A stretch of DNA of 58,100 bases from a virus (taxonomy: Duplodnaviria > Caudoviricetes), in the IMG/VR virus record IMGVR_UViG_3300031920_000245, positions 1 through 58,100 of that record; one strand, given 5' to 3'. The notes under the pieces are model-generated. The model was not told the DNA's origin and did no database searches. It worked only from the letters and a program-made list of their open reading frames with translations. This document shows positions 42,027-55,306 of this stretch, one piece after another; within the stretch, counting starts at the first letter, position 1, and every line of letters begins with the position of its first letter. Position numbers and translations under genes: made by a program.

Positions 42027-42654
42027 ATGTATTATATTGTGGTTTTCTATCTTTAACCTTCATATTTACATTACTTTCAAGAATACTTTCACAATATGCT
42101 CTTATAAATAATTCTCTTGTTTTTTCTGATGCTTGTCCTAGTTCAGGAAAAGGTATTTCTTGACCATCTGGGGTATATAATCTAACTTCAATATCAGACC
42201 AATTAACACCATTCATCCACATATCACCTTCTGGTGGTTGTGTATAACCATCACCGGGATCAGAATAACCATCCATATATATTTTTAATGGTTGACCACT
42301 AAAATCAACATTAAATGGAATTGGGGTAATTGGATCATCATCATTTGAAGGATTTTGACCATTAACATTTGAAGGATTATGATATTGATAAATTACACTA
42401 ATAAAATATTGGAACTCTATATTATCTTGATTTTCATCATAGTCAGGTTCTGTAATATGAGCTTCAGGTGTGTTATTAATATTTATCTTTTCTCTCATGT
42501 TTGTAATTGAGTCGATTATAAAACTTCTTTGGAAATTTCTCTGACTTAATAATTCCACACCCTCTGTTTCTTTTATTAACGATTCATTACTTAAAAAATC
42601 GAATTGTACAATTTCCTCATTAATAATTCTATATACGTCTTTTAATTTCATAAA
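42013..42654 (-). CDS. Hypothetical protein
   Basis: ORF track gives 42013-42660; start uncertain; IINEE motif; late motif at 42667. Confidence 0.5.
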   Translation of the reverse strand, partial: FMKLKDVYRIINEEIVQFDFLSNESLIKETEGVELLSQRNFQRSFIIDSITNMREKININNTPEAHITEPDYDENQDNIEFQYFISVIYQYHNPSNVNGQNPSNDDDPITPIPFNVDFSGQPLKIYMDGYSDPGDGYTQPPEGDMWMNGVNWSDIEVRLYTPDGQEIPFPELGQASEKTRELFIRAYCESILESNVNMKVKDRKPQYNTFNQQ

Positions 42655-42779
42655 ACTCAAATTTCCTATAAATACTTGATATTTTACATTAATTTCTAAA
42701 TATATTTTATTTTTTGTAAGTATTTATAGGAAATAAATAAACACATTTGCCAGTTAGTGGTTAAGTTAATAATAACATT

Positions 42780-42815
42780 AAAATGCATTCAAAAATAATT
42801 GGATGCATTTTTTTT
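42780..42815 (+). terminator. Intrinsic terminator insulating tRNA operon 1
   Basis: AAAATGCATTCAA-aaataa-TTGGATGCATTTT plus T run. Confidence 0.7.
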
Positions 42816-42835
42816 ATGAAATAATTTGTTTTTAA

Positions 42836-42862
42836 TGTAACCTTTTATATCTTTGCAACGTA
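42836..42862 (+). promoter_or_regulatory. TGTAAC-N17-CGTA promoter of tRNA operon 1
   Basis: TGTAAC 42836-42841, CGTA 42859-42862. Confidence 0.65.
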
Positions 42863-42912
42863 TTTAGTAATAAAGAAACAATTTATGTTTAAAGATATTA
42901 GAATTTAGAACA

Positions 42913-42969
42913 ATGAAAAGAATAATTAACATACAACCGCAACCGCAACATCAACCAATATTTGGTTAG
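42913..42969 (+). CDS. Attenuator leader peptide 1, MKRIINIQPQPQHQPIFG
   Basis: Codon run CAA CCG CAA CCG CAA CAT CAA CCA; followed by antiterminator, terminator and tRNA-Pro, Pro, His, Gln. Confidence 0.85.
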   Translation: MKRIINIQPQPQHQPIFG

Positions 42970-43057
42970 TTGAACGGGAATGTTATGTGTTAAATATATA
43001 TTAACTTAAAATAAAACAGGACCTCCGTTCAATAAAATGAACGGGGGTTTTTTATTT
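42970..43057 (+). terminator. Attenuator 1: antiterminator plus intrinsic terminator
   Basis: Terminator ACCTCCGTTCA-ataaaa-TGAACGGGGGT-TTTTT at 43021-43057; TTGAACGG at 42970 is complementary to its 5' arm CCGTTCAA. Confidence 0.85.
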
Positions 43058-43083
43058 AATAACAATTAAACAATTTAGAAAAA

Positions 43084-43218
43084 ATGGGAATTCCGAGAAA
43101 CAAAGAACAAAATTTAAAAAGACTAAAAAACCGATTGAAAAAATTTGATGGCAATAACCAAAAAATGGCTGACAAAATAAAAGTTAAAATCAAAATGGTT
43201 GAAAGTCAAAAAGGTTAA
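43084..43218 (+). CDS. 44-aa basic protein
   Basis: MGIPRNKEQNLKRLKNRLKKFDGNNQKMADKIKVKIKMVESQKG, not in the ORF track. Confidence 0.55.
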   Translation: MGIPRNKEQNLKRLKNRLKKFDGNNQKMADKIKVKIKMVESQKG

Positions 43219-43226
43219 GTAAAGAT

Positions 43227-43303
43227 CGAGTAGTTGGGGAGTCAGGTCACCCCGCCACATTTGGGATGTGGAGAACTCGCAGGTTCGAATCCTGCCTACT
43301 CGA
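43227..43303 (+). tRNA. tRNA-Pro(UGG)
   Basis: Acceptor CGAGTAG/CTACTCG; anticodon arm CCACA-TTTGGGA-TGTGG. Confidence 0.92.
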
Positions 43304-43311
43304 CTAAATAT

Positions 43312-43386
43312 ATGGGTGTTCCGCAGATGGATATACGGACATGTTTTGGGGACATGTGTTCGTGGGTTCGAATCCCACTACCCATA
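43312..43386 (+). tRNA. tRNA-Pro(UGG), second copy
   Basis: ATGGGTG/TACCCAT; CATGT-TTTGGGG-ACATG; GTGGG-TTCGAAT-CCCAC. Confidence 0.85.
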
Positions 43387-43512
43387 CAATAATTAGTTAC
43401 CCTGCTTGTTCCGTGTGGGGTTATAAAAATACATTAATTAACGGAACTCATGATGGAGTCCTTGCCAAGAAAGTAGGATAAAGATGTTATAATGTTGACT
43501 AATTATATATAT

Positions 43513-43584
43513 GGTGTTTGAAGCATTAATGTGATGTGCATGACTGTGGATCATGAGAAGACGGTTCAATACCGTCCTTACACC
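43513..43584 (+). tRNA. tRNA-His(GUG)
   Basis: CATGA-CTGTGGA-TCATG; G-1:C73; two U-U mismatches in the acceptor stem. Confidence 0.78.
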
Positions 43585-43600
43585 CAAAATTTTTAAAGTT

Positions 43601-43747
43601 ATGGGAAAAATTAGAGTTGGAAATAAAGAAAATGCTATTCTAAACCGTGAATGGGGTGGACATGTGAAAAGTTGGTGTAAAAAATACACAGCTAAAACAC
43701 GTAGAAATCTTAATCAACGAATTATAAGAGAAGCAATGTTTGATTAA
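43601..43747 (+). CDS. 48-aa basic protein
   Basis: MGKIRVGNKENAILNREWGGHVKSWCKKYTAKTRRNLNQRIIREAMFD. Confidence 0.55.
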   Translation: MGKIRVGNKENAILNREWGGHVKSWCKKYTAKTRRNLNQRIIREAMFD

Positions 43748-43754
43748 ATTATAT

Positions 43755-43825
43755 TGACCTATGGTGTAATGGTAGCACAGGTGATTTTGGTTCACCCGGT
43801 CAAGGTTCGAATCCTTGTAGGTCAG
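43755..43825 (+). tRNA. tRNA-Gln(UUG)
   Basis: TGACCTA/TAGGTCA; GGTGA-TTTTGGT-TCACC. Confidence 0.92.
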
Positions 43826-43865
43826 CAATTTTTTTATTTCATATGTTTTTATTACCTTTACCCCT

Positions 43866-44249
43866 ATGAGAAAATACAATTTATTCCTCGATGATTTTAG
43901 ATCATTAGCTGATGCACATTCATATACATTTGAAATGCTTTATGCTACAAAAAAATGGGAAATAGTTCGTTCCTATGATGAATTCGTTAAATATATTGAA
44001 GAGAATGGTCTACCTGAAATGATTTCCTTCGACCACGATCTCGCTGACGAACATTATGATTACCAAAAAGAGATTAATTACGATCAAGTAGAAAAAACAG
44101 GATACCATTGTGCTAAATGGTTAATTAATTATTGTCTTGATAATAAATTAGATGTTCCGGATAAAATATTAATTCATTCAGCAAATACTGTTGGTTCTCT
44201 AAATATAAAATCATTATTTGACACTTATTGGAAAGTTTACGGTAAATAA
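43866..44249 (+). CDS. Cyclic-phosphate-processing receiver-domain protein
   Basis: LFLDDFR, ISFDHDL, TGYHCAKWL, IHSANTVG motifs. Confidence 0.8.
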   Translation: MRKYNLFLDDFRSLADAHSYTFEMLYATKKWEIVRSYDEFVKYIEENGLPEMISFDHDLADEHYDYQKEINYDQVEKTGYHCAKWLINYCLDNKLDVPDKILIHSANTVGSLNIKSLFDTYWKVYGK

Positions 44250-44260
44250 AACATAAAATT

Positions 44261-44512
44261 ATGATACCAGATTACGAAGAAGAACATAGAATAGATCAAG
44301 CTAATAAAGCATATGAATTGTTTGAAAGATTTTTAGAATCACATGACGGTAAAAGAATATTCCCTGAACATAAGGAATTACTTGATTATTTTTTATTGAA
44401 AGAATTACATATTGACGAATTAAAAGAAAAAATTCACCAATATGAAAGTTTCTTTAATACCTTAAAAGGTTTTTTACCTCGTGATTTTTCGATTCATGAT
44501 AAATTAAGTTAA
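44261..44512 (+). CDS. Hypothetical protein
   Basis: 83-aa ORF. Confidence 0.5.
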   Translation: MIPDYEEEHRIDQANKAYELFERFLESHDGKRIFPEHKELLDYFLLKELHIDELKEKIHQYESFFNTLKGFLPRDFSIHDKLS

Positions 44513-45265
44513 TTACCTCCTACCCCCTGAATAAGTTCTACTTCCGGTACTTCTTGTTGTTGTCGAACTTCTACCACTACCATTGTTGGACCTACTTGAG
44601 ATCGATGGTCTACTTGTTGTATTTCTATATATATTTGTCGGTCTTGTTGTACTTGTTGAAGTACGTGAATAAGTACTTGGGCGTGTACTACTATTTGTGG
44701 TAGTTCTATTATAATTAGAAGGTCTTGTTGACGTTCTTGTATTGTTATATACTGGTTTCATTGATGTTGTTCTTGAATATGTTGGTCCTGAAGTTCGTGA
44801 ATAAGTACTTGGACGTGTAGTTGATCTTGATGTATACGTATTATCATGGTTAGAAGTATACGTATTGTGATGAGAATAACGATTTCCTTGATTATATTTA
44901 TAATATGGTCCGTAATGATACGATATGGAACGATAATGATACGGATTATAATGACAATAGTAATTTCTTGGATAATGATAGCTATAATGATATGGTCTAT
45001 AACGATAATATGAATAATAATTTGATGGATATACGTAGCCAAAACTTACAATATAACGAACTTTTGGCTGACTATAGGATTCGTTATTATAATAATTATT
45101 AGTCACATAAGTATTATTTACAGCATCATTTACTGTATCATTTACAACCTCACTTACAGCATCATTTTCTTTATGTAATCTATATTTTTCGTAATTAGAT
45201 AATTCTTGTGCAAACATTTGTGTCACGAATATAATCCCGGTTAATATTAAATATAATTTTTTCAT
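44513..45265 (-). CDS. Secreted low-complexity protein (Tyr/His-rich, then RPSTYSRT repeats)
   Basis: Signal peptide ending MFA-Q; tail ending SGGRR, Bacteroidetes-like. Confidence 0.65.
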   Translation of the reverse strand: MKKLYLILTGIIFVTQMFAQELSNYEKYRLHKENDAVSEVVNDTVNDAVNNTYVTNNYYNNESYSQPKVRYIVSFGYVYPSNYYSYYRYRPYHYSYHYPRNYYCHYNPYHYRSISYHYGPYYKYNQGNRYSHHNTYTSNHDNTYTSRSTTRPSTYSRTSGPTYSRTTSMKPVYNNTRTSTRPSNYNRTTTNSSTRPSTYSRTSTSTTRPTNIYRNTTSRPSISSRSNNGSGRSSTTTRSTGSRTYSGGRR

Positions 45266-45349
45266 AGTAGTTTTGTTTTTAATATAAATACAATTATCAT
45301 ACCAAGTCTTTAATTAAAAATTATGTATTTATATAAAATATTGGTTATT

Positions 45350-46009
45350 ATGAAAAAACAAACAGATAAGGAATTATTATTCGAAAGAATGCATAAAGTT
45401 AGTGGTATGCCACTAAATGAAAATTTTAAACAAGCTGAAGAATTCACACCACATGGTACATACACTGTTTCAAATAGTGGTGGATATGAAATAATGTTAA
45501 ACGATTCTGGTGATGGTGCAAAGGTTCGTGATGCATATGATTCAGATAATCCAAAAACCTCAGATTGGTTAGAAATAGAACATGTTACTGGTGAAGATGG
45601 TGAATTAGAACCTGTTATCGACCCTAATGGATATAATATTCCATTGAATCAGGTGATGAGAGTTAATGAAGATGATGATAAAGTTACTGCTGCTGATGAT
45701 AGTGAACCTGAAGAAACCGAAGCATGGCAAGGTGGAATCTCAGTGGATGAAGATGATATAAATGAAGATAGTTCTAGTGAAACACCAATTCATAAATGGG
45801 TAATGTTTGCATTTAATTATCCTCATGGTTTTATTGAAGAAGTTTGGGCAGATGCTGGTGAATCAACAATAAATCATTTATCATCTAAATTTTCATCTTT
45901 ATACAATAGGGTTGGTTCAAGTTCAGTTATAAATAAATTTTATACTGAATTAGATGCTGGTAATCAAGCAAAATTAGAGAATTGGGTTATGGAAAACTAT
46001 CAAGGATAA
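45350..46009 (+). CDS. Acidic protein with KxTDKELLFERM N-terminus
   Basis: Start ATG 45350 after GTATTTATA at 45325. Confidence 0.65.
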   Translation: MKKQTDKELLFERMHKVSGMPLNENFKQAEEFTPHGTYTVSNSGGYEIMLNDSGDGAKVRDAYDSDNPKTSDWLEIEHVTGEDGELEPVIDPNGYNIPLNQVMRVNEDDDKVTAADDSEPEETEAWQGGISVDEDDINEDSSSETPIHKWVMFAFNYPHGFIEEVWADAGESTINHLSSKFSSLYNRVGSSSVINKFYTELDAGNQAKLENWVMENYQG

Positions 46010-46049
46010 AAAATAATTCACTTTTTTTGTAACATTTAAAATAAAAAAT

Positions 46050-46535
46050 ATGAAAAAGAAAACAGATAAAGAACTTCTTTTTGAAAGAATGGAAATAGTT
46101 AATCCTGACTTTAATAAACCCGAATTAGCTGAAGTATCTGATAAAAACATTCCAATTAATATGTATAGAAAATTATATTTATTGGCGAAAGATACTACTG
46201 GTGAATTATTAAAAGAATTTGAGACATTATTAAATTTTCTATTTAATGGACAAACACCACCACATATTATAACATCACTTTCAATATCTAATTCTCCAGA
46301 TGAATTCATGCGTAATGTGGCTAGTTTTGAGGGATTAAACGAGAATGATATATTAGAAGAATTGGAAGAAGATATTGGTGGTACAAAAGATGCTGAATAT
46401 AGAAGAACCATTCAATTATTTGAAGAAATATATAAAAATAAAGGTCTTTATTATGCTTTAGCTTTACTCTATGATAGTCAATATGATAGAGAAGATATTA
46501 AGAATATGATGGAACTTATTTATCCAAAAAAATAA
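46050..46535 (+). CDS. Protein with KxTDKELLFERM N-terminus
   Basis: First 14 aa nearly identical to the previous gene. Confidence 0.65.
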   Translation: MKKKTDKELLFERMEIVNPDFNKPELAEVSDKNIPINMYRKLYLLAKDTTGELLKEFETLLNFLFNGQTPPHIITSLSISNSPDEFMRNVASFEGLNENDILEELEEDIGGTKDAEYRRTIQLFEEIYKNKGLYYALALLYDSQYDREDIKNMMELIYPKK

Positions 46536-46552
46536 AAATAATTCACTTTTTT

Positions 46553-46578
46553 TGTAACATTTAATATTTATATACGTA
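46553..46578 (+). promoter_or_regulatory. TGTAAC-N16-CGTA promoter of tRNA operon 2
   Basis: TGTAAC 46553-46558, CGTA 46575-46578; GTATTTATA also at 46596. Confidence 0.65.
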
Positions 46579-46623
46579 TATTTGCATAGAAGATTGTATT
46601 TATAAAAAATAAAACACGATAAA

Positions 46624-46734
46624 ATGAAAAATTTAATGGACATAATGTTAATTTCTGCACTCGTTGCCTTATTATGGGCAGATAACGATGTGGATGAACT
46701 ATGTTCAGTCGGGTTTAATAAATTAAGATGTTAA
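46624..46734 (+). CDS. Attenuator leader peptide 2, MKNLMDIMLISALVALLWADNDVDELCSVGFNKLRC
   Basis: Core ALVALLWADNDVDEL matches downstream tRNA identities; contains antiterminator AGTCGGGTTT at 46707-46716. Confidence 0.8.
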   Translation: MKNLMDIMLISALVALLWADNDVDELCSVGFNKLRC

Positions 46735-46755
46735 CTAAGCTAACTTTTTAAATAG

Positions 46756-46795
46756 AAAAACCCGACTTGAGTAATTAAGTCGGGTTTTTTGTTTT
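46756..46795 (+). terminator. Attenuator 2 terminator
   Basis: AAAAACCCGACTTGA-gtaa-TTAAGTCGGGTTTTTT-GTTTT. Confidence 0.88.
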
Positions 46796-46933
46796 ATATA
46801 AGTAATTGTTCTTTGACGTATTGGGAAATTAAAATGGTGTTCAAGTTATCTGGATAATCCAGATGGGTTGAATATTAAACATAATTAAGGGTTATTATAT
46901 CGAATAATTTTCGTAAATTCGAACCCTTAATAT

Positions 46934-47010
46934 GGTCTACGGGGCTGCTAGGTGTGGCTGCCGGACTGTCACTCCGGAGATTCAGATGGGTTCGAACCCC
47001 ATGTAGACCG
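46934..47010 (+). tRNA. tRNA-Asp(GUC)
   Basis: GGTCTAC/GTAGACC; CCGGA-CTGTCAC-TCCGG; G73. Confidence 0.88.
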
Positions 47011-47052
47011 CTTTTTTACATATTGACAGTATTTATATTAAATATAAATTTT

Positions 47053-47754
47053 ATGAAAAGTAAAAGATATGAAAAAGAATTTTTTAGTCAAATAGTTAAA
47101 CATTCACATAATCTAACAGACATTGCTGAAAAATTAAATTTAAAACCACATTGTGGTAATAGAGATACAATAAAAAAATATATTAACATATATAGATTAG
47201 ATACATCACATTTTAGAGTAAGATATGAATTAAGAATAAAAAGGAAAATCCCATTATCTGAAATAATGATAAGTGGATCAACATATTCAACAACTAATTT
47301 AAAAGAAAGATTATATGATGAGGGTTTAAAAGAAAGAGAATGTGAGAAATGTGGACAAGGGGAAATATGGTATGGTGATAATATGTCTTTAATTCTTGAC
47401 CATATTAATGGGGATAGTAGTGATCATAGGTTTGAAAATCTTCGTATATTATGTCCAAATTGTAATGCAACATTACCAACACATGGTGGTAAAAATAAAA
47501 GAAATAAAAAATATTATTATTATAATGATTCTAATCAATATTGCAATTGTGGTAATAAAAAAAATAATAAAGCAGAATTGTGTAAAAAATGTAATGATAT
47601 TAATATTAGAAAAGTAAAGAGACCTACATATAATCAATTAATTAAAGAAATTAAAGAAACATCGTATTGTGCTGTAGGTAGAAAATATAATGTTAGTGAT
47701 AATACAATAAGAAAATGGATAAAGTTTTATGAAAATAATAATACACCCTCGTAG
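47053..47754 (+). CDS. HNH homing endonuclease
   Basis: CEKC...LDHINGDSSDHRFENLRILCPNCNA; C-terminal HTH; likely start ATG 47053. Confidence 0.9.
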   Translation: MKSKRYEKEFFSQIVKHSHNLTDIAEKLNLKPHCGNRDTIKKYINIYRLDTSHFRVRYELRIKRKIPLSEIMISGSTYSTTNLKERLYDEGLKERECEKCGQGEIWYGDNMSLILDHINGDSSDHRFENLRILCPNCNATLPTHGGKNKRNKKYYYYNDSNQYCNCGNKKNNKAELCKKCNDINIRKVKRPTYNQLIKEIKETSYCAVGRKYNVSDNTIRKWIKFYENNNTPS

Positions 47755-47818
47755 TTCAGTCGGTTAGAATATAAGCCTGTCACGCTTAAGGTCGCCCGTT
47801 CGAGTCGGGTCGGGGGTG
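47745..47818 (+). tRNA. tRNA-Asp(GUC), second copy
   Basis: ACCCTCG/CGGGGGT; TAAGC-CTGTCAC-GCTTA. Confidence 0.9.
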
Positions 47819-47827
47819 CAGACAAAT

Positions 47828-47900
47828 ACTCCTATAACTCAGTTGGTAGAGTGCTTGTGTTACATACAAGATGTCATCGGTTCAAGTCCGGTTGGGAGTA
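47828..47900 (+). tRNA. tRNA-Val(UAC)
   Basis: ACTCCTA/TGGGAGT; CTTGT-GTTACAT-ACAAG. Confidence 0.88.
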
Positions 47901-47940
47901 CAATTCGATTTTTCCAGACACGTCTGGAATATTCAAAAAT

Positions 47941-48012
47941 GCTGCGTTAGTGAAGTGGTTATCACGTCAGACTTTCAATCTGGAGTCGGGAGTTCAATTC
48001 TCCTACGCAGTA
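47941..48012 (+). tRNA. tRNA-Glu(UUC)
   Basis: GCTGCGT/ACGCAGT; TCAGA-CTTTCAA-TCTGG. Confidence 0.88.
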
Positions 48013-48109
48013 CAAATTTTTTATTGGTACAAAATTAACAAAAGAGTTAGTATTTAATATAAATGATAAAAAAAGATGTTTTTATTGGTATAAAACTAAC
48101 AAATTATAT

Positions 48110-48181
48110 GGCGCATTCTTCTAACGGCTAGGAAATCGGGTTTTCATCCCGGCAATGGGGGTTCGATTCCCCCATGCGTTA
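48110..48181 (+). tRNA. tRNA-Glu(UUC), second copy
   Basis: GGCGCAT/ATGCGTT; TCGGG-TTTTCAT-CCCGG. Confidence 0.88.
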
Positions 48182-48631
48182 CAATGTTTCTTCTTCTTTC
48201 TTACCATGATCACCCATATAAGAAAGATGGAAGAAACAACTATAAAGTGTCCACATAAACAATAAATTAAGTATCATTTCCATAGGATTTGCGATTATTA
48301 ATCTCCAAGATACTTCAAGTGAGAACATTGGTAAGCTAAGAAAACATAATATCCAAATTGTTTTAAATGTGTGCCATAAATCTGTCGTAAAGACCAAAAC
48401 TGATTTAAATATTGGGGTTAATATTTTTTTAAATATTTCAGGTATGTTTTTATCATCTAAAAAATATTTATTTTTATGACTTACTGCGGGATTTGCCCAT
48501 TGTTGGAATTTTTCGTTTTTAATTCTAGACCAGTATGTTTTTTTATATTTATGTCTAATTTTATCAGACATTCCATTAAAAAAACCACCGATAGCAATTA
48601 AAATATATGGTGTTAAAATATAAAGTATCAT
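48179..48631 (-). CDS. Membrane protein antisense to the tRNA array
   Basis: Hydrophobic segments, TDLWH motif; late motif at 48637. Confidence 0.6.
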   Translation of the reverse strand: MILYILTPYILIAIGGFFNGMSDKIRHKYKKTYWSRIKNEKFQQWANPAVSHKNKYFLDDKNIPEIFKKILTPIFKSVLVFTTDLWHTFKTIWILCFLSLPMFSLEVSWRLIIANPMEMILNLLFMWTLYSCFFHLSYMGDHGKKEEETL

Positions 48632-48677
48632 TTAAACATAAATACTATTTATTTAATACAAATAAAATATATTTGAT

Positions 48678-48926
48678 ATGGATTTAGAAAATAAAATTGA
48701 AAAATTAGAACAGGAAAATGATGATCTTAAAGATCAATTATTTGAATTACAAACAAATTTAAAATATTCTCGTGAAAATGATTTACGTGATTTTCTTAGA
48801 ACATTATACAGGGAAATTAATGAAGAAATTGAAGATGATGAAAGTAAATTATCAAAAGAAGATATATTAAAGAATATGAAAAAATATATTTCTGTTTTTT
48901 CTGAAAAATATAATCTACCACTATAA
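48678..48926 (+). CDS. Hypothetical coiled-coil protein
   Basis: 82-aa ORF. Confidence 0.55.
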   Translation: MDLENKIEKLEQENDDLKDQLFELQTNLKYSRENDLRDFLRTLYREINEEIEDDESKLSKEDILKNMKKYISVFSEKYNLPL

Positions 48927-48934
48927 TTTAATAT

Positions 48935-49012
48935 TGTCGCATAGCTCAGTAGGTTCAGAGCACTTGGTTTACACCCAAGGGGTCGTGGGTTCGAATCCCT
49001 CTGCGATAACCA
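48935..49012 (+). tRNA. tRNA-Val(UAC), second copy, CCA encoded
   Basis: TGTCGCA/TGCGATA-ACCA; CTTGG-TTTACAC-CCAAG. Confidence 0.9.
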
Positions 49013-49103
49013 CATTTATCGGTAAATATATCGATAAACTACATTTATCGGGTTTAGAGTCGATAAATTATTTAAAGTGGTCAAATATAACCACTTTAAA
49101 CAC

Positions 49104-49185
49104 CCCCTTGTGGTGGAATTGGTAGACACGCATGATTTAGGATCATGTGCCGTAAGGCATGAGAGTTCGAGTCTCTCCAAGGGGA
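49104..49185 (+). tRNA. tRNA-Leu(UAG)
   Basis: CCCCTTG/CAAGGGG; CATGA-TTTAGGA-TCATG; long variable arm. Confidence 0.92.
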
Positions 49186-49259
49186 CAAGCTTAATCGGGG
49201 TAACGATAGTAAGTTCCCGACACTTAGAGGTGAAATTATAGTTTACCATAAGCACGTAT

Positions 49260-49334
49260 GGGGCAGTAGCATAGTCTGGCTAATGCGTTTGTTTTGCAAG
49301 CAAAAGATCGCTGGTTCAAATCCAGTCTGTTCCA
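49260..49334 (+). tRNA. tRNA-Ala(UGC)
   Basis: GGGGCAG/CTGTTCC with G3:U70; TTTGT-TTTGCAA-GCAAA. Confidence 0.88.
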
Positions 49335-49383
49335 CAAGTAGAAATAGGTTTTCGTGCGGTTTTCCTCAAATAAACCAAACTAT

Positions 49384-49465
49384 GGGAACGTGGTGGAATT
49401 GGTATACACGATAGTTTAAGGAGCTATTACTTTACAGTGTGAGGGTTCGAGTCCCTCCGTTCTCA
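49384..49465 (+). tRNA. tRNA-Leu(AAG)
   Basis: GGGAACG/CGTTCTC; Leu-type D arm; ATAGT-TTAAGGA-GCTAT. Confidence 0.82.
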
Positions 49466-49541
49466 CAAATTTACATCAGTTAGGTCTAATCTTTCTATTA
49501 TTAATGGTAAATTAGACTAAACTGATGTAATTAGATTAAAT

Positions 49542-49626
49542 GGCGATGTGGTGGAATTGGTAGACACGCTGGACTTAAAATCCAGTGAGCATTACGCTCG
49601 TGGGGGTTCAAATCCCCCCATCGCTA
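49542..49626 (+). tRNA. tRNA-Leu(UAA)
   Basis: GGCGATG/CATCGCT; CTGGA-CTTAAAA-TCCAG. Confidence 0.93.
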
Positions 49627-49631
49627 CAAAT

Positions 49632-49705
49632 GGGGCATTAGCTCAGATGGCTAGAGCACCTCCCTTGCACGGAGGGGGTCGTGGGTTCGAGTCCCACATG
49701 TTCCA
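49632..49705 (+). tRNA. tRNA-Ala(UGC), second copy
   Basis: GGGGCAT/ATGTTCC; CCTCC-CTTGCAC-GGAGG. Confidence 0.93.
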
Positions 49706-49798
49706 CAAAATGAGTTGCACCTTGAATATTCATTAATTATTAGAGGACGATTAGGTTTGATATCAACTGAAAGATCGTTAATAATATTCTATTAAGGT

Positions 49799-49890
49799 TT
49801 GATCACTTTAATGGGTATGAATGTGATAATAGGATGGCGACCCTGTTTGAAAAGAACAGGATGTATAGGGTTCGATACCCTTGTGATTCA
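49799..49890 (+). pseudogene. Aberrant tRNA-like gene (possibly Phe-derived)
   Basis: T arm AGGG-TTCGATA-CCCT, GATCAC/GTGATT acceptor, hairpin CCTGTT-TGAAAAG-AACAGG; expanded non-canonical D region. Confidence 0.5.
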
Positions 49891-49939
49891 CAAAATTGTT
49901 TTTGGTAATATTCATCTATTTATAATAAAATACAATATT

Positions 49940-50419
49940 ATGATAGATCAAATAGACCAATATGTTTTCTTTTTTATAATGCAAGCAGTTTTCATATCAT
50001 ACGTGTTTTTCATTATGATTAAGTATGGAGTACAAAAATCAATTTCAGAAAGTTATTACGCATTACCACCTAAATTAAGACCATTATTTACTTTTTTCTG
50101 TTGGGGTTTTGCTTTCCCTGCAATTATTGTCGGAGATTCAGTATTAATGTTTTTTGCTGGTTCTGGTATTGCTTTTGTTGGTGCTGCATGTAATATGCAT
50201 GAAGAATTTGTGAGGAAAGTACATGTAACTGCAGCAATAATAGGAATAACATGTGCTCATTTGGCAATTATATTTAATTACGATATGTGGTGGCTTACTG
50301 CAGGATTTGTAATTATATCAATTCCAATAATAATATTTAATAAAAAAACATATATTTGGTGGATTGAATTATTATCTTTCATTTCAATAAGCGTTGCGTT
50401 AGGTACATCAATTTTCTAA
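49940..50419 (+). CDS. Multi-pass membrane protein
   Basis: Likely start 49940; SISESYY motif then about five hydrophobic helices. Confidence 0.7.
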   Translation: MIDQIDQYVFFFIMQAVFISYVFFIMIKYGVQKSISESYYALPPKLRPLFTFFCWGFAFPAIIVGDSVLMFFAGSGIAFVGAACNMHEEFVRKVHVTAAIIGITCAHLAIIFNYDMWWLTAGFVIISIPIIIFNKKTYIWWIELLSFISISVALGTSIF

Positions 50420-50424
50420 TACTT

Positions 50425-50498
50425 ACGTCCGTAGTTCAATTAGGTAGAATGCTGGTCTCCAAAACCAGAGGTTGGGGGTTCGATTCCCTCCGGGCGTG
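50425..50498 (+). tRNA. tRNA-Trp(CCA)
   Basis: ACGTCCG/CGGGCGT; CTGGT-CTCCAAA-ACCAG; G73. Confidence 0.92.
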
Positions 50499-50520
50499 CT
50501 AATATTTATTCAATAATTTA

Positions 50521-50760
50521 ATGGTAATGAAACACGAATTAAAAGAAATTGTGAAAGGAACTGTGGCAAAATTAGAGCATGTTTGTAATGGTAAAGCTGA
50601 TTATAGAATCAATGTTAATGATACTATTTATCAACTTGAAATTAACATTATGGAAAAGGAATGGGAAAATATATACATACTTCCGGAATATAAATCGATA
50701 ACATTAATGCGTTGGATCAGAAAAGGGATTGAGAATGGTAATCTTATTCAATTAAATTAA
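50521..50760 (+). CDS. Hypothetical protein
   Basis: 79 aa with KSITLMRWIRK. Confidence 0.55.
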   Translation: MVMKHELKEIVKGTVAKLEHVCNGKADYRINVNDTIYQLEINIMEKEWENIYILPEYKSITLMRWIRKGIENGNLIQLN

Positions 50761-50766
50761 TTTTTT

Positions 50767-50792
50767 TGTAACATTTCTTGATATTCTCCGTA
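50767..50792 (+). promoter_or_regulatory. TGTAAC-N16-CGTA promoter
   Basis: TGTAAC 50767-50772, CGTA 50789-50792. Confidence 0.65.
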
Positions 50793-50815
50793 TATATAAT
50801 TAAATTTGACAACTT

Positions 50816-51544
50816 ATGTTGATACTTGGAAAAAATAGAGATTATTATGATGGTGTTGTCGGTACAATGGGTATTGATAAAACTATTGTTTATAATCGTC
50901 ATACTGTTGAAAATGATGACTGTAAAAAATTTCCAAAAGAATTTAAATGTAAATTACATTATAGTGATGATGAATCAAAATTTATTGATCTTTGTTCTTA
51001 TGGTATTGACAGTGATAAAACTAAAAAATATAAAGAAGTTGATGTTTTTTTTATTGGTTTTTGTGGTAAAATATATATCGGTTGGAAATTTTATTATTTA
51101 ATTGGTAATGGTATTCACGAAAAAATGAAATATGATATTGTTTATGATATTGATGTAGCAAAGAAATACATTAAAGATAATAGATGGGGTAGTGGTAATC
51201 TTAATGATATTCTGAATCATATTAAAAATTATAATCCTATTGAATTATTTAGAGAAAATAATACACCTATTTTTATTTATGATAGTCATATAGATAGAAT
51301 AGATTTAGATAAATATTATGGTAGTAACAATCAAAGATTTATTATTAATCCGGTGTTAAAAGAATATAAATTTTATAAGGTTTTTGATACATTTAGTGCC
51401 TTTCAAGAAATTCAAATGTTTATCTCCGGTGTGTTGGGATCTAATGAAAAAGATATTATTGAAGTGGAAGATAAATATAAAATTGCACAACATGGTTTTA
51501 ATAAATGGTCCTTTAGAAGAGAACCATCAAAGAAAAAGAAATAA
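50816..51544 (+). CDS. Hypothetical phage protein
   Basis: 242 aa; DYYDG, FIGFCGKIY, AFQEIQMFISG, HGFNKWSFR. Confidence 0.7.
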   Translation: MLILGKNRDYYDGVVGTMGIDKTIVYNRHTVENDDCKKFPKEFKCKLHYSDDESKFIDLCSYGIDSDKTKKYKEVDVFFIGFCGKIYIGWKFYYLIGNGIHEKMKYDIVYDIDVAKKYIKDNRWGSGNLNDILNHIKNYNPIELFRENNTPIFIYDSHIDRIDLDKYYGSNNQRFIINPVLKEYKFYKVFDTFSAFQEIQMFISGVLGSNEKDIIEVEDKYKIAQHGFNKWSFRREPSKKKK

Positions 51545-51587
51545 ATGCTGCGAATAATGAGGTTAATCGTTGCACATTTTACGGCAA

Positions 51588-51875
51588 ATGAGAAATTATA
51601 CTAATTTATTAATAATTCCCGCAAAATTTGCGAAGAATAGTGATGATAATCAACGCATAATTAATTGTGTGATCGGTAAAACCCCTGATGGTGTGCCAAT
51701 TACACAATTAAGAAAATTTGAGAAATATTGTACAGAAGGTATTGAAAATCCGACCTATTTATTAATAGGCATCATAAGTGGTCAGGGTTTTACACGAGTA
51801 ACATTTACCGATGCCAAAGAGTTTGAAAAATTGTTCATTGAAAAATGGGGTTGTCTGGATTTGACAGCAACGTAG
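51588..51875 (+). CDS. Hypothetical protein overlapping the tmRNA 5' end
   Basis: ATG 51588; stop lies inside ssrA. Confidence 0.45.
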   Translation: MRNYTNLLIIPAKFAKNSDDNQRIINCVIGKTPDGVPITQLRKFEKYCTEGIENPTYLLIGIISGQGFTRVTFTDAKEFEKLFIEKWGCLDLTAT

Positions 51876-52215
51876 AATGGTAAGTAAGCAAGTGGTAGTT
51901 GTAGAATCTACTTTAAAAAAGTTACAAAACTATAAATGCAGAAGACTTAATGTCTATTCCAACATTTCTTAACAGAAGTGTACCAGCAGTTGCAAGTGAA
52001 GCTGAACTAGCAATGGCTGCGTAAGGAAACAGCAAAAAAACAGCGAAAAACTTGTAATCAAGTAAGGTTTGAGATACCTTTAAATAATCACTCTGGTTAA
52101 TTATTCGACTATAACGAATAGATATTTTGGATGATTAGAAAATCATATCCTAAACTTGTAGAAAACTTATTAGTCACTTGTTTGGACGTGGGTTCGACTC
52201 CCACCAACTCCACCA
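51847..52215 (+). ncRNA. ssrA: tmRNA
   Basis: 5' GGGGTTG...GGATTTGAC; 3' GACGTGGGTTCGACTCCCACCAACTCCACCA with G3:U; tag ORF 51938-52024 after ATAAAT ending LAMAA-stop. Confidence 0.93.
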
Positions 52216-52216
52216 A

Positions 52217-52362
52217 GGTAATTGTGGGGTCTTAATAAGACTTAAAGATAGTTTGCAAACGTAGGTAGTTAGAGTTCATGATGATAGCTATCAAATGATG
52301 TGTTGGCATGGGAGTTCGACTCTTCCACACGTTGCTTTAAGTTAAAGACCCTACACATTACT
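52217..52362 (+). ncRNA. Unidentified structured RNA
   Basis: TGTGGGGTCTT/AAGACCCTACA and ACTTAAAG/CTTTAAGT closing stems; internal GGAG-TTCGA-CTCT T-loop-like hairpin. Confidence 0.55.
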
Positions 52363-52399
52363 GATAAAAAATAAGAAAGATTGAAAGACATTTGGAGAT

Positions 52400-52705
52400 A
52401 TGAAAAAATTAGTTAGAGATAGAATTCCAGAAATTATCGAAAAAAAAGAAGGTAAATCACCAGATTATTATATTGCTAAATCTGAAGAGTATGAAGGAAG
52501 ATTATATGATAAATTAGGTGAAGAAACTATTGAATTTATCAATGAACCTTGTGCTGAAGAACTTGCTGATATTTTAGAAGTGGTTGGTGCACTTGCTAAA
52601 TTTCATGGTATTGGTCTTGAGGATATTAAAATAGCTAAGAACAAAAAATTCAGAGAAAGAGGTGGTTTTAATGAACGTTTAGTATTAAATATGCCTGAAA
52701 AATAA
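52400..52705 (+). CDS. MazG/HisE-like nucleoside triphosphate pyrophosphohydrolase
   Basis: KLVRDRIPEII, KL.EE..EF, EELADILEV, K..ERGGF. Confidence 0.85.
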   Translation: MKKLVRDRIPEIIEKKEGKSPDYYIAKSEEYEGRLYDKLGEETIEFINEPCAEELADILEVVGALAKFHGIGLEDIKIAKNKKFRERGGFNERLVLNMPEK

Positions 52706-52747
52706 CATAATTTAAATTATGCCCCCATGAAAGCATATTTATATTAA

Positions 52748-52879
52748 ATGAATAGAAAACCATTACATATTAAACCTTCCCGGAAAAAACCAACTGAATA
52801 TTGTTGTGGTAAGAGAGTTAAAGTTGGTGATCGTGGTAGAAAAAAACCAAACATAACAAGAAGAATAAAAAAAAGATAA
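52748..52879 (+). CDS. 43-aa very basic peptide
   Basis: MNRKPLHIKPSRKKPTEYCCGKRVKVGDRGRKKPNITRRIKKR. Confidence 0.45.
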   Translation: MNRKPLHIKPSRKKPTEYCCGKRVKVGDRGRKKPNITRRIKKR

Positions 52880-52911
52880 CTCCCATGAATGTTTTTCTTG
52901 GAATTTAATTT

Positions 52912-52993
52912 GCCTCAATGATGGAACTGGTAGACATGCAGGTTTCAAAAACCTGTGCTTCCGAGCTTGTGGGTTCAAATCCCACTTGAGGTA
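52912..52993 (+). tRNA. tRNA-Leu(CAA)
   Basis: GCCTCAA/TTGAGGT; CAGGT-TTCAAAA-ACCTG. Confidence 0.9.
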
Positions 52994-53012
52994 CTATTTA
53001 TAAATAAATAAC

Positions 53013-53192
53013 ATGAATATTTTAGAATTAACATTAATCACTATTTTTATTATGGTAGTTGGATTATATCTAATTATTGAATTAATTGATTCTTTTTTCC
53101 GAATCAGATCATATTTTAAAAGGTCACCTTTTTCAGAATATGATCAGAAAATTGGATTAAGTTATAATCCTAAAACTAAAAAATTAACATAA
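53013..53192 (+). CDS. 59-aa membrane protein
   Basis: MNILELTLITIFIMVVGLYLIIELID...; CTATTTATA upstream. Confidence 0.5.
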   Translation: MNILELTLITIFIMVVGLYLIIELIDSFFRIRSYFKRSPFSEYDQKIGLSYNPKTKKLT

Positions 53193-53250
53193 TTATGAAA
53201 AACTCAAAAGAAAGGTCATCAGTCTTCTAATACTAAAATGTTAGAAGATT

Positions 53251-53541
53251 ATGAGAAGAATTAAAGAAACTGTAGACAATACCTCAAATAGGGGTGAGTT
53301 TAATCGAGCATACAAACGGTATCTCGAAAGTAAAGGAAAAATTCGTTGTTCGTACTGTGGTTATAATCGTGGTGAAAACGATAATAGAAAATGGTATGGT
53401 AGTAACATGAGGGATGGTATTAGTTATCCTAATTGGAAATTAGCCACTAAAAACAGTAAACAATGGATGGATAAAAACCTCGAAATAACAAATAAAATTA
53501 TTCGAGGTGTAGAACATACCACTATCAAATTTAAACGATAG
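53251..53541 (+). CDS. Basic protein with CxxC
   Basis: 96 aa; IRCSYCG. Confidence 0.6.
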   Translation: MRRIKETVDNTSNRGEFNRAYKRYLESKGKIRCSYCGYNRGENDNRKWYGSNMRDGISYPNWKLATKNSKQWMDKNLEITNKIIRGVEHTTIKFKR

Positions 53542-53552
53542 TGGTTTTATCT

Positions 53553-53626
53553 TGCGGGGTAGCTTAGTCGGTTAAAGCGTTGGAGTCATATCCCAAAGAC
53601 CGAGGGTTCGAATCCCTCTCCCGCAA
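53553..53626 (+). tRNA. tRNA-Met(CAU), initiator-like acceptor
   Basis: TGCGGGG/TCCCGCA; TTGGA-GTCATAT-CCCAA with one mismatch. Confidence 0.8.
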
Positions 53627-53694
53627 CAAATTTCCCAATACGTTTTTTATATATAAATTTATTCATATATTTGTCTAATAAAAACACAAATAAT

Positions 53695-54240
53695 ATGGAA
53701 GAATTAAAAACACCACTTGTAATTAATTTATTTGCTGGTCCGAGCACTGGTAAAAGTACATCTGCAGCACAAATTTTCTCTGAATTAAAATGGATGGGAA
53801 TTAATTGTGAGATGGTTACAGAATTTGCAAAAGATAAAGTATGGGAAGAATCATTTAAGGTCTTAGATGATCAGGTTTACATTTTCGGTAAACAAGTACA
53901 TAGAATGCGTAGACTTGTTGGTAAGGTTGATATAATTATTACTGATTCACCGATCTTAAATTCATTGGTTTATGATGAATCTGGAAATGATAATTTTCAT
54001 AATTTAATTTTGGATGTTTTTAATGAATTTAATAACTTAAACTTCTTTCTTAGAAGAACAAAAAAATTCCAACAAGCTGGAAGAGTCCAAAATGAAGAGA
54101 AATCAAAGTTGTTAGATAATAAAGTTTGGAATATGTTATGTGATAATAAAATACCTTGTGATCCGGTTGATGCAAGTAAAGAGAATATAATAAAAGAGGT
54201 TTTACCTATAATTAATAGAGTATATTCAGCAAATAAATAA
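53695..54240 (+). CDS. NadR/AAA_28-like P-loop ATPase or kinase
   Basis: INLFAGPSTGKST, EFAKD, ITDSP, GRVQ. Confidence 0.8.
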   Translation: MEELKTPLVINLFAGPSTGKSTSAAQIFSELKWMGINCEMVTEFAKDKVWEESFKVLDDQVYIFGKQVHRMRRLVGKVDIIITDSPILNSLVYDESGNDNFHNLILDVFNEFNNLNFFLRRTKKFQQAGRVQNEEKSKLLDNKVWNMLCDNKIPCDPVDASKENIIKEVLPIINRVYSANK

Positions 54241-54256
54241 AATAATTCGGAAATAA

Positions 54257-54282
54257 TGTAACCTTTGTTTGGTTTATTCGTA
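54257..54282 (+). promoter_or_regulatory. TGTAAC-N16-CGTA promoter of tRNA operon 3
   Basis: TGTAAC 54257-54262, CGTA 54279-54282 overlapping GTATTTATA. Confidence 0.65.
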
Positions 54283-54322
54283 TTTATAGTATAGATTTGT
54301 AAAGTTAAATTTAAAAAAGAAA

Positions 54323-54409
54323 ATGATGTCAAGAATTAACACATATTATTTCAAGAAATCTTATAAGAAGTATCTTATAGGAATCGGGAATCGTATGATT
54401 AGTTCATAA
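54323..54409 (+). CDS. Attenuator leader peptide 3, MMSRINTYYFKKSYKKYLIGIGNRMISS
   Basis: TAT TAT TTC AAG AAA TCT TAT AAG AAG TAT; antiterminator GAATCGGG at 54381-54388. Confidence 0.85.
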   Translation: MMSRINTYYFKKSYKKYLIGIGNRMISS

Positions 54410-54440
54410 AAAATAAATTAACTAAAACTAATATATGTTT

Positions 54441-54476
54441 AAAAACCCGATTCTTAATAGAGTCGGGTTTTTTGTT
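54441..54476 (+). terminator. Attenuator 3 terminator
   Basis: AAAAACCCGATTCT-taat-AGAGTCGGGTTTTTT-GTT. Confidence 0.88.
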
Positions 54477-54502
54477 GTATAAAAGTTCTTTGAATATATA
54501 AT

Positions 54503-54575
54503 GATCTCGTAGCTCAGTTGGTAGAGCACCTGCCTTTTAAGCAGGGAGTCGTGGGTTCGATCCCCACTGGGGTCA
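54503..54575 (+). tRNA. tRNA-Lys(UUU)
   Basis: GATCTCG/TGGGGTC; CCTGC-CTTTTAA-GCAGG. Confidence 0.92.
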
Positions 54576-54638
54576 CAGAAAAGAGGAATGATAGAGTCCA
54601 CACTACCTCTTCCTATATATGGGGATGTGGACACCAAT

Positions 54639-54710
54639 GGTTTCGTAGCTGAGTTGGTTTAGCACCGCCCTTTTAAGGCGGGGACGTGGGTTCGACCCCC
54701 ACCGGGATCA
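54639..54710 (+). tRNA. tRNA-Lys(UUU), second copy
   Basis: GGTTTCG/CGGGATC; CCGCC-CTTTTAA-GGCGG. Confidence 0.9.
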
Positions 54711-54723
54711 CTATTAAATATAT

Positions 54724-54816
54724 CACATAATGGTGAAAAGGAATACACTATCCAAGACATGGGGAGAGGGATGCTGGCAACACCATTCCATACGGGTTCG
54801 AGTCCCGTTTATGTGA
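54724..54816 (+). pseudogene. tRNA-like gene with Leu-type body and broken anticodon arm
   Basis: CACATAA/TTATGTG acceptor, TGGTGAAAAGGAATACAC D arm, ACGGG-TTCGAGT-CCCGT T arm, long variable arm; no canonical anticodon loop. Confidence 0.6.
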
Positions 54817-54830
54817 CAAAAATTAATATT

Positions 54831-54995
54831 ATGAGTAGAGAAGAATTATTAGCATTTTTACGTGAAAATCTAACCATTGAAGTATCATTAGATGATGAAT
54901 ATGAAGGTGATGGTAGATATGCAACAAGTAATGTGACATTAAGATTATGTGATGAAGAAATTTCATCATCATATGATTCAGTAAAGATAGATTAA
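54831..54995 (+). CDS. Small acidic protein
   Basis: Likely start ATG 54831 (MSREELLAFLRENL...). Confidence 0.55.
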   Translation: MSREELLAFLRENLTIEVSLDDEYEGDGRYATSNVTLRLCDEEISSSYDSVKID

Positions 54996-54998
54996 ATT

Positions 54999-55081
54999 GG
55001 ATAGGTGGTCGAGTGGTTAATGGCAGCAGACTGTAACTCTGCCCTCTTAGGAGTTCGGGGGTTCGAATCCCTCCCTGTCCA
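54999..55081 (+). tRNA. tRNA-Tyr(GUA)
   Basis: GGATAGG/CCTGTCC; GCAGA-CTGTAAC-TCTGC; long variable arm. Confidence 0.92.
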
Positions 55082-55154
55082 CAATATTGTCAGTTGGGGA
55101 GTCTTAGTGACTTTATGCCACCTCCTATCGGGGTGGACTCTGGCAATATTAATT

Positions 55155-55234
55155 GGGTACGTTGAGCAATTGGTGGCTCGCCTGACTGTAGATCAGGTCT
55201 TAACAGCTTGGGGGTTCGAATCCCTCCGTGCCCA
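55155..55234 (+). tRNA. tRNA-Tyr(GUA), second copy
   Basis: GGGTACG/CGTGCCC; CCTGA-CTGTAGA-TCAGG. Confidence 0.9.
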
Positions 55235-55306
55235 CTTTTTATTTTTCTAATTAATTTAGATATTATATATTATTTTTTATATATTTGTATGAATTAATTA
55301 TTCCAC

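Follow-up and report, generated by a model that had tools for sequence, protein, structure and literature searches.

The 58.1-kb stretch analysed here (positions 1 to 58,100 of IMG/VR virus record IMGVR_UViG_3300031920_000245, which is the whole record, estimated to be 17% complete; hereafter the window) has a G+C content of about 29% and encodes a Gp23-type capsid protein, a T4-type portal protein, a large terminase and a sheath protein. These genes mark it as part of a large T4-like myovirus. ARAGORN reports 22 tRNA genes and one transfer-messenger RNA (tmRNA) gene between 43.2 and 55.2 kb, and Rfam adds one tRNA gene, at 43514–43585, that ARAGORN misses at its default settings. Our subject is a small open reading frame (ORF) at 46624–46734, the terminator behind it, and the twelve tRNA genes that follow at 46934–50499, which specify Asp (two), Val (two), Glu (two), Leu (three, with anticodons tag, aag and taa), Ala (two) and Trp. 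A preliminary description of this DNA had proposed that the ORF is the leader of a transcription attenuator sensing these same six amino acids, and the tRNA content that it gave for the cluster is confirmed.

All of the elements in question lie on the plus strand. A promoter-like site of the Bacteroidota type occupies 46551–46584, with TTTG at 46551–46554 and TATATTTG at 46577–46584, in agreement with what we take to be the Bacteroidota promoter consensus (TTTG, about 19–22 nucleotides (nt), TAnnTTTG); transcription would start near 46590. The leader ORF has 36 codons and a stop codon and encodes MKNLMDIMLISALVALLWADNDVDELCSVGFNKLRC. Its residues 12–26, ALVALLWADNDVDEL (46657–46701), form the proposed sensor run, and within its codons 28–31 lies the sequence AGTCGGGTTT (46707–46716), the proposed antiterminator arm. 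An intrinsic terminator with 16 pairs and a T run (-21.1 kcal/mol) is located at 46755–46795, the hairpin extending to 46790, with AAACCCGACT within its 5' arm (46758–46767) and AGTCGGGTTT again within its 3' arm (46778–46787), and a conserved motif, GTTCTTTGACGTATTGGGAAATT, is positioned after it at 46808–46830. We found no other plus-strand terminator-like hairpin between 46787 and 54443. The full promoter pattern has seven matches in the window, no more than expected by chance, and four of the seven, including two that overlap each other, immediately precede the small ORFs of the three leaders described here; a scan for sigma-70-type promoters was uninformative, with 79 sites versus 87.4 in shuffled sequences.

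The duplication of the terminator arm noted in the preliminary description is exact, with AGTCGGGTTT present at both 46707–46716 and 46778–46787 and its complement at 46758–46767. With at most one mismatch allowed, the 10-nt arm has seven matches where 1.75 are expected, and none of 100 shuffled sequences reaches seven. The first copy can pair with the terminator 5' arm (10 of 10 pairs, -20.1 kcal/mol), and this antiterminator structure is the minimum-energy fold as long as the terminator 3' arm is absent. The terminator sequence (46758–46787) also reads as a hairpin with a T run on the minus strand (-14.9 kcal/mol), which could halt antisense transcripts from an ORF at 48179–48631.

Within the window, the codon match between leader and tRNA cluster exceeds chance. 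Fourteen of the 15 sensor codons specify Asp, Val, Glu, Leu, Ala or Trp, the sole exception being an Asn codon (AAC), as had been described. Among 293 small ATG-initiated ORFs in all six frames of the window, the leader is the only one with a 15-residue stretch containing 14 residues of this set (the runner-up has 12), and none of 14,389 15-residue windows from ORFs of at least 150 amino acids scores 13 or more; across the whole peptide the set accounts for 19 of 36 residues versus a background of 0.307 (binomial P 0.0047). The peptide has no match in Pfam or PHROG. The preliminary description also proposed a match at the level of isoacceptors, in which the Leu codons used correspond to the Leu anticodons of the cluster. 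This is literally true, but it is uninformative, as anticodons aag, tag and taa jointly read all six Leu codons by wobble; moreover, CTC persists in relatives that have neither a Leu(aag) nor a Leu(gag) tRNA, and we saw no isoacceptor-level tracking, so that this part of the proposal does not stand.

Two further units of the same design are present in the window. Unit 1 (42825–43826) has a promoter box at 42825–42855, a leader encoding MKRIINIQPQPQHQPIFG at 42913–42969, an arm copy (TGAACGG) at 42971 and a terminator at 43018–43051, ahead of tRNA genes for Pro, Pro, His (43514–43585) and Gln. Unit 3 (54264–55235) has a promoter box at 54264–54299, a leader encoding MMSRINTYYFKKSYKKYLIGIGNRMISS at 54323–54409, an arm GAATCGGG at 54381 that is complementary to CCCGATTC at 54446, and a terminator at 54441–54472, ahead of tRNA genes for Lys, Lys, one odd tRNA, Tyr and Tyr. 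The unit 1 leader is rich in Pro, Gln and His, and the unit 3 leader in Lys and Tyr, each ahead of the tRNAs for those amino acids. That three small genes with no connection should share one design, and that each should use the amino acids its own tRNAs carry, would be difficult to account for. With the tRNA-His(gtg) of unit 1, which scores 39.6 bits in Rfam and which ARAGORN reads once its threshold is relaxed, the tRNAs of this unit make up the full Pro/His/Gln set to which its leader corresponds; default ARAGORN also overlooked His, Trp and Glu tRNAs in relatives (L006, L024). The odd gene of unit 3 is a 94-nt tRNA-like gene at 54724–54817, to which ARAGORN assigns Val(gac) by default and Cys(aca) when the threshold is relaxed; it scores 32 bits in Rfam.

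Relatives were collected through the neighbouring 242-amino-acid protein (50816–51541), a search blind to the leader that gave 3 and then 65 viral loci, and 24 further stretches came from a DNA pattern derived from the leader; with a loose form of the pattern, the matches listed were mostly unrelated contigs, and 2 of 79 new loci were relevant. The upstream 161-amino-acid protein yielded no relatives, LR756500.1, the best public match to the 242-amino-acid protein, has no tRNA genes detectable by ARAGORN in the 24.7 kb around the match, and near-identical DNA in cultured phages was confined to a 59-nt tRNA-Trp match in a Caulobacter phage. Units were searched for as a terminator followed by a tRNA gene, then an upstream copy of the 3' arm, then an ORF spanning that copy. 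An attempt to set cluster ends with relaxed ARAGORN including tmRNAs was discarded, as false tmRNAs shortened the clusters. The three units turn up again across some 60 related jumbo-phage contigs with syntenic tRNA order, and we refer to those of the unit 1 type, the 46624 leader type and the unit 3 type as families 1, 2 and 3 respectively. A TAnnTTTG box is present at most 80 nt upstream of the leader start in 18 of 18 distinct units of family 1, 28 of 32 of family 2 and 8 of 9 of family 3.

The arm copy is found mainly at terminators that precede tRNA genes. An exact copy of the 3' arm of at least 7 nt is present at -130 to -10 in 57 of 103 distinct terminators with a tRNA gene within 400 nt, and in 11 of 400 other terminators of these loci; 6 of those 11 are terminators of the same attenuator types with no tRNA detected nearby by ARAGORN. 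In the 32 distinct sequences of family 2 the antiterminator helix forms standard pairs in 98.2% of alignment cells, and in the 19 sequences of family 1 it is paired in 96.7% of cells, with one compensatory change from U-A (15 sequences) to C-G (4 sequences); outliers such as L089, L073 and L072 preserve complementarity with other arm sequences. The Val-Gly codons of the arm are GTC GGG in nearly all 32 family 2 sequences, even though GTC represents only 0.089 of the Val codons and GGG 0.061 of the Gly codons in the long ORFs of these phages. The retention of these rare synonymous codons points to a constraint on the RNA and not on the peptide. The terminator is conserved too, and so is the frame: the start ATG is invariant and the frame open in 30 of 30 aligned relatives, length changes are by whole codons, and the position of the stop codon is fixed relative to the arm. 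The interval between arm and terminator is short and variable in the relatives, and contains no conserved large fold. In alignment A2 of the relatives (e.g. L007:1820–1918) this loop has a small hairpin and a conserved CTCCTTTCTT, and at several loci a purine-rich stretch after the terminator, such as GAAAGGAG in L007, is complementary to CTCCTTTCTT. The window lacks this loop element because its ORF runs through the region.

Leaders of family 2 consist of a conserved N-terminal octet, a variable segment, a Trp codon, an acidic run and then the arm. Of 30 variable segments 26 differ in sequence, yet 85% of their 287 residues are Asp, Glu, Val, Leu or Ala, as are 87% of the six residues past the Trp; the order of the residues is scrambled and their composition kept. 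Ile and Phe together represent 4 of 247 hydrophobic residues in this segment versus 40.7% across the long ORFs of these phages. In an AT-rich phage, both residues should be abundant in any generic membrane peptide, whereas a sensor for a cluster that has no Ile or Phe tRNAs should avoid them. Family by family, the leaders are enriched for the amino acids of their own tRNAs, with fractions of 0.301 for Pro/His/Gln in family 1 (background 0.082), 0.611 for Asp/Glu/Val/Leu/Ala/Trp in family 2 (background 0.307) and 0.340 for Lys/Tyr in family 3 (background 0.148); the fractions for the sets of the other families are at or below background.

The preliminary description had suggested a comparison of homologous leaders where tRNA content differs, and this gives an answer in two parts. 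For Arg and Val the leaders track the tRNAs: a tRNA-Arg(acg) is found only in clusters L044 and L047, whose leaders alone have a CGC codon within the Pro/Gln/His run, and a Val-free leader core is present in 2 of 5 clusters without tRNA-Val versus 0 of 25 with tRNA-Val (Fisher 0.023), with a third Val-free case, L246, being related to one of the two. Four other relatives, considered below, keep codons for which the tRNA is absent.

A search for the bare signature of arm and terminator recovered the same module with other leaders. These include the L254 type (L254:2067–2405), with tRNAs for Ser, His, Trp, Asn, Leu and Arg; the L219 type (L219:5192–5506), with tRNAs for Asp, Leu, Arg, Met, Glu, Ile, Asn, Val and Thr; L268 (L268:10183–10513), with tRNAs for Ile, Phe, Ser, Gly, Asn, Leu and Cys; L257, with two tRNAs for Phe at a locus that is cut; and L251, on the minus strand, with a 40-codon leader ahead of a cluster of 24 tRNA genes. 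A more distant case, L076 (L076:17190–17370), has a leader rich in Thr, Arg, His, Ser and Pro and a terminator only, the terminator being located 5 nt before tRNA genes for Pro, Ser, His, Thr and Arg. Seven leaders were scored against the seven tRNA sets, namely the three of the window together with L254, L219, L268 and L076; left out were L257 (cut), L251 (all amino acids), L224 and L246 (family 2 variants) and L216 (ORF unresolved). Each of the seven has its highest z-score with its own tRNA set, and the true assignment is the best of 5040 permutations.

Taken as a whole, these patterns make it probable that the 46624 unit is a ribosome-mediated leader-peptide attenuator, one that would govern read-through into the phage tRNA cluster from an early promoter of host type. 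The conservation of the unit, the arm copies, the leader composition and the other leaders on the same module strongly support the core of the preliminary proposal, an attenuator matched to its tRNAs, but not its isoacceptor-level match; the proposed sensing of all six amino acids and control of the distal tRNAs are more conjectural. We infer that the leader would be translated, that ribosomes would stall on it and that read-through would carry the transcript into the cluster. RNA polymerase would start near 46590 and transcribe the 36-codon leader, with a trailing ribosome reading the run of Ala, Leu, Val, Trp, Asp and Glu codons. When decoding is fast, the ribosome would be on or past the arm at 46707–46716 before the terminator 3' arm is made, and the terminator (46755–46790) would fold and stop transcription; when the ribosome stalls between 46657 and about 46690, the free arm would pair with 46758–46767, no terminator would form, and polymerase would continue into tRNA-Asp and the later genes. 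As the output is tRNA, such a loop would correct a shortage of decoding capacity, whether this results from a codon-usage mismatch, loss of host tRNAs during infection, or their cleavage by host nucleases.

No conserved anti-antiterminator equivalent to the trp 1:2 hairpin was found in the family consensus. The fold of the window has a hairpin at 46637–46706, but what remains in the consensus is just a hairpin of four pairs around the Leu-Leu-Trp codons, with no element that sequesters the arm; the default state in the absence of any translation should therefore be read-through. We considered a segment-1 analogue, in which the 5' untranslated region at about 46612–46620 pairs with the arm in the full-length fold of the window, and rejected it, having seen no counterpart by eye in L006.

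Several observations weigh against the attenuator. With the terminator 3' arm in place, the terminator had the lowest energy under every ribosome mask tried, and the switch must therefore be kinetic, as in classical attenuators. The family 2 antiterminator helix is nearly invariant and offers almost no covariation. In 23 of 32 relatives the stop codon is directly after the Gly codon of the arm, but the ORF of the window, like that of a few relatives, continues past the arm, here for six codons (stop at 46732–46734); masking of the arm from the stop codon would be indirect here, with the ribosome sitting inside the loop. A ribosome with the usual footprint, on which this estimate rests, would still cover part of the arm if it stalled at the last three or so sensor codons (about 46693–46701), a point that the preliminary description had raised. 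Further, C-ending codons (GTC, GCC, CTC) are over-used in the leaders, and with strict wobble the U34 tRNAs of the cluster cannot read C-ending codons, so that 16 of 19 set codons match in the window.

Differences in tRNA content among the relatives add to these difficulties. The clusters of 30 of the 32 distinct family 2 leaders are seen to their end, and 24 of these 30 carry all six tRNA kinds; the other six lack from one to five of the kinds, with the leader almost unchanged. L065, L066, L070 and L084 keep Val, Ala, Leu or Glu codons without the corresponding tRNA, the L066 cluster having only Asp and Trp tRNAs and that of L084 only Asp. Either, then, leader composition trails behind the tRNA set, or some codon classes are of no consequence.

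Possible additional promoters also count against control by the attenuator alone. The GTTCTTTGACGTATTGGGAAATT motif downstream of the terminator includes the sequence GTTC[TA]TTGA, and 55 of 117 distinct sites of this kind in the families have the start of a tRNA or tmRNA gene within 160 nt, at a median distance of 14 nt. In the window it is found at 46808–46830, 54485–54493 and 51833–51841, the last of these preceding the tmRNA, a gene with no attenuator. It may be an RNA-processing signal or a second promoter, which would provide attenuator-independent expression. Inside the cluster there are TAnnTTTG boxes at 47427, 48668, 49752 and 50351, none with a well-spaced upstream TTG, and the distal tRNAs may have transcription starts of their own. 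In family 1 the spacer between terminator and first tRNA gene is only 5–30 nt in 13 of the 16 distinct spacers listed, and 10 of these 13 have no motif; at these loci read-through seems to be the sole route to the tRNAs.

Some of these same observations would be expected of a switch that depends on translation but is not codon-specific, with the leader reporting general translation capacity or coupling and its composition a by-product. Such a switch would explain why the leader is unchanged where most of the matching tRNAs are absent, and why the octet MKNLLDIL and many nucleotides are more conserved than composition demands; and as no anti-antiterminator was found, read-through should follow from loss of translation alone. 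It does not explain why each of three families in one phage, and each of at least four additional leader types, has its best fit with its own tRNA set (7/7; 1 in 5040), why Ile and Phe are nearly absent from the hydrophobic segment in an AT-rich phage, or why Arg and Val content tracks tRNA content, and we consider it unlikely. Another arrangement, an ordinary small gene that has a promoter and terminator of its own and encodes a conserved hydrophobic or acidic peptide, with the tRNAs expressed from a promoter at the GTTCTTTGA motif and a functionless arm copy, is in our estimation decidedly unlikely. In its favour, the peptide is fairly well conserved, the terminator is always favoured at equilibrium, and the motif is present between terminator and first tRNA in nearly all family 2 loci and marks tRNA or tmRNA starts even where there is no attenuator (51833). 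A functionless arm copy is difficult to reconcile with complementarity in 98.2% of cells by way of rare synonymous codons and with the rarity of such copies at other terminators (11/400), the short spacers of family 1 (5–30 nt in 13/16, 10 of them motif-free) are too small for a promoter, and the composition of the peptide, fitted to the tRNA set and scarce in Ile and Phe, and its lack of a Pfam or PHROG match also count against this arrangement.

Two other explanations do without the ribosome. A trans-acting factor, either a protein or a tRNA as in T-box leaders, might set the alternative hairpins, which would suit regulated genes that are themselves tRNAs, given the precedent of direct tRNA sensing by T-box leaders. 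The invariant start codon, the open frame and a stop codon fixed relative to the arm are not accounted for in this case, the region from arm to terminator is short and variable with no conserved large fold, and no T-box or other regulatory RNA family matches at E up to 1; we regard a trans-acting factor as very improbable. The hairpin could also be mainly a two-way terminator between convergent transcripts, including one from the antisense ORF at 48179–48631, and the arm copy a relic of local duplication, in keeping with its reading as a terminator on the minus strand and the recurrence of the same terminator sequence type at 54441–54472. A relic would decay, however, whereas the copy is exact in the window and is conserved in position and sequence in 32 distinct relatives, and the antisense ORF has no family support, and there is scarcely any likelihood of this being the explanation.

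Leader-peptide attenuation is a well-established mechanism for genes that make or charge amino acids. The enterobacterial ilvGMEDA and ilvBN leaders sense Leu, Val and Ile and the thr leader senses Thr and Ile; like the 46624 unit as proposed here, these have a short translated leader that is rich in the sensed codons, respond to more than one amino acid per leader, and form an antiterminator that is mutually exclusive with an intrinsic terminator. The regulated genes are different here, being tRNA genes and neither amino-acid biosynthesis nor synthetase genes, and six amino acids are represented instead of two or three; the unit is also phage-borne, has a Bacteroidota-type promoter, and has no conserved anti-antiterminator that we could find. 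The pheM leader attenuator of Escherichia coli pheST, which controls phenylalanyl-tRNA synthetase, similarly acts on a gene of the translation apparatus, although it is cellular, regulates a synthetase, and senses a single amino acid. T-box leaders also choose between terminator and antiterminator by tRNA state and have translation-related targets, but they bind tRNA directly and need no ORF, whereas here an ORF is conserved. Neither the T-box model nor the Rfam leader families (Trp, His, Leu, Thr etc.) match at E up to 1 in 42500–55500. Full-text literature searches brought up no paper that treats leader-peptide attenuation of tRNA genes. The cluster resembles that of T4 in being a tRNA array of a T4-like myovirus with interspersed small ORFs and homing endonuclease genes, and we know of no demand-sensing leader for T4-type phage tRNA clusters, nor did the literature searches bring one up. 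If the proposed attenuator operates as we suggest, it would differ from known ones in its tRNA output, its six amino acids, its lack of a conserved anti-antiterminator and its location in a phage.

The phage would then probably make the cluster tRNAs mainly when ribosomes read the leader codons slowly. What the loop would regulate is decoding capacity, and not the supply of amino acids. It would give phage tRNA genes, which are usually treated as constitutive, a concrete control logic, and would connect their arrays with mismatched codon usage, with the loss of host tRNAs and with defences that cleave tRNAs. It would also be a compact natural part that converts the reading speed of chosen codons into transcription, and its leader appears exchangeable because seven leader types are found on similar modules. 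More broadly, although we put this forward tentatively and with rather more doubt than confidence, jumbo phages of Bacteroidota-type hosts might run their tRNA arrays as demand-controlled modules, each with a translated sensor read codon by codon, and so replace host tRNAs that are depleted or cleaved, including by anticodon-nuclease defences. The six-amino-acid 46624 leader would in that case be the most multivalent natural attenuator known, and evolution of the module would proceed by exchange of sensor codons as tRNA genes are gained and lost.

The cluster behind the terminator is interrupted by several ORFs. Its first gene, tRNA-Asp(gtc) at 46934–47011, is atypical: its Rfam score of 27.6 bits falls short of the gathering score (29), and it has an enlarged D arm by eye. 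In relatives L013 and L009, too, the first Asp gene is missing from the Rfam gathering list. An HNH endonuclease gene (47053–47754; PF01844; phrog_10822, 1.4e-40) lies within the array, and is of the homing type, located between the two tRNA-Asp genes; the tRNA content of the array is strongly variable among relatives. It is followed by tRNAs Asp(gtc), Val(tac), Glu(ttc) and Glu(ttc) at 47745–48182 and, on the minus strand at 48179–48631, by the putative antisense ORF of 150 amino acids, which has no family match in Pfam or PHROG. An ORF of 82 amino acids with no confident family (48678–48926), with a TATATTTG box directly upstream at 48668–48675, precedes tRNAs Val(tac), Leu(tag), Ala(tgc), Leu(aag), Leu(taa) and Ala(tgc) at 48935–49706. 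An ORF of 206 amino acids without family match (49799–50419) and tRNA-Trp(cca) (50425–50499), the last tRNA of the cluster, complete the array; all of these except the antisense ORF are on the plus strand.

On either side of the unit there are a few other features of interest. The phage tmRNA at 51847–52215 (119.2 bits in Rfam) has the tag AEDLMSIPTFLNRSVPAVASEAELAMAA and is kept in relatives, downstream of the Asp-to-Trp cluster. Upstream of the leader, a 28-nt repeat (96% identity) is found at 46015–46042 and 46540–46567, before and after the ORF at 46050–46535, and this ORF and the one at 45323–46009 are paralogues with similar N-termini (MKK.TDKELLFERM).

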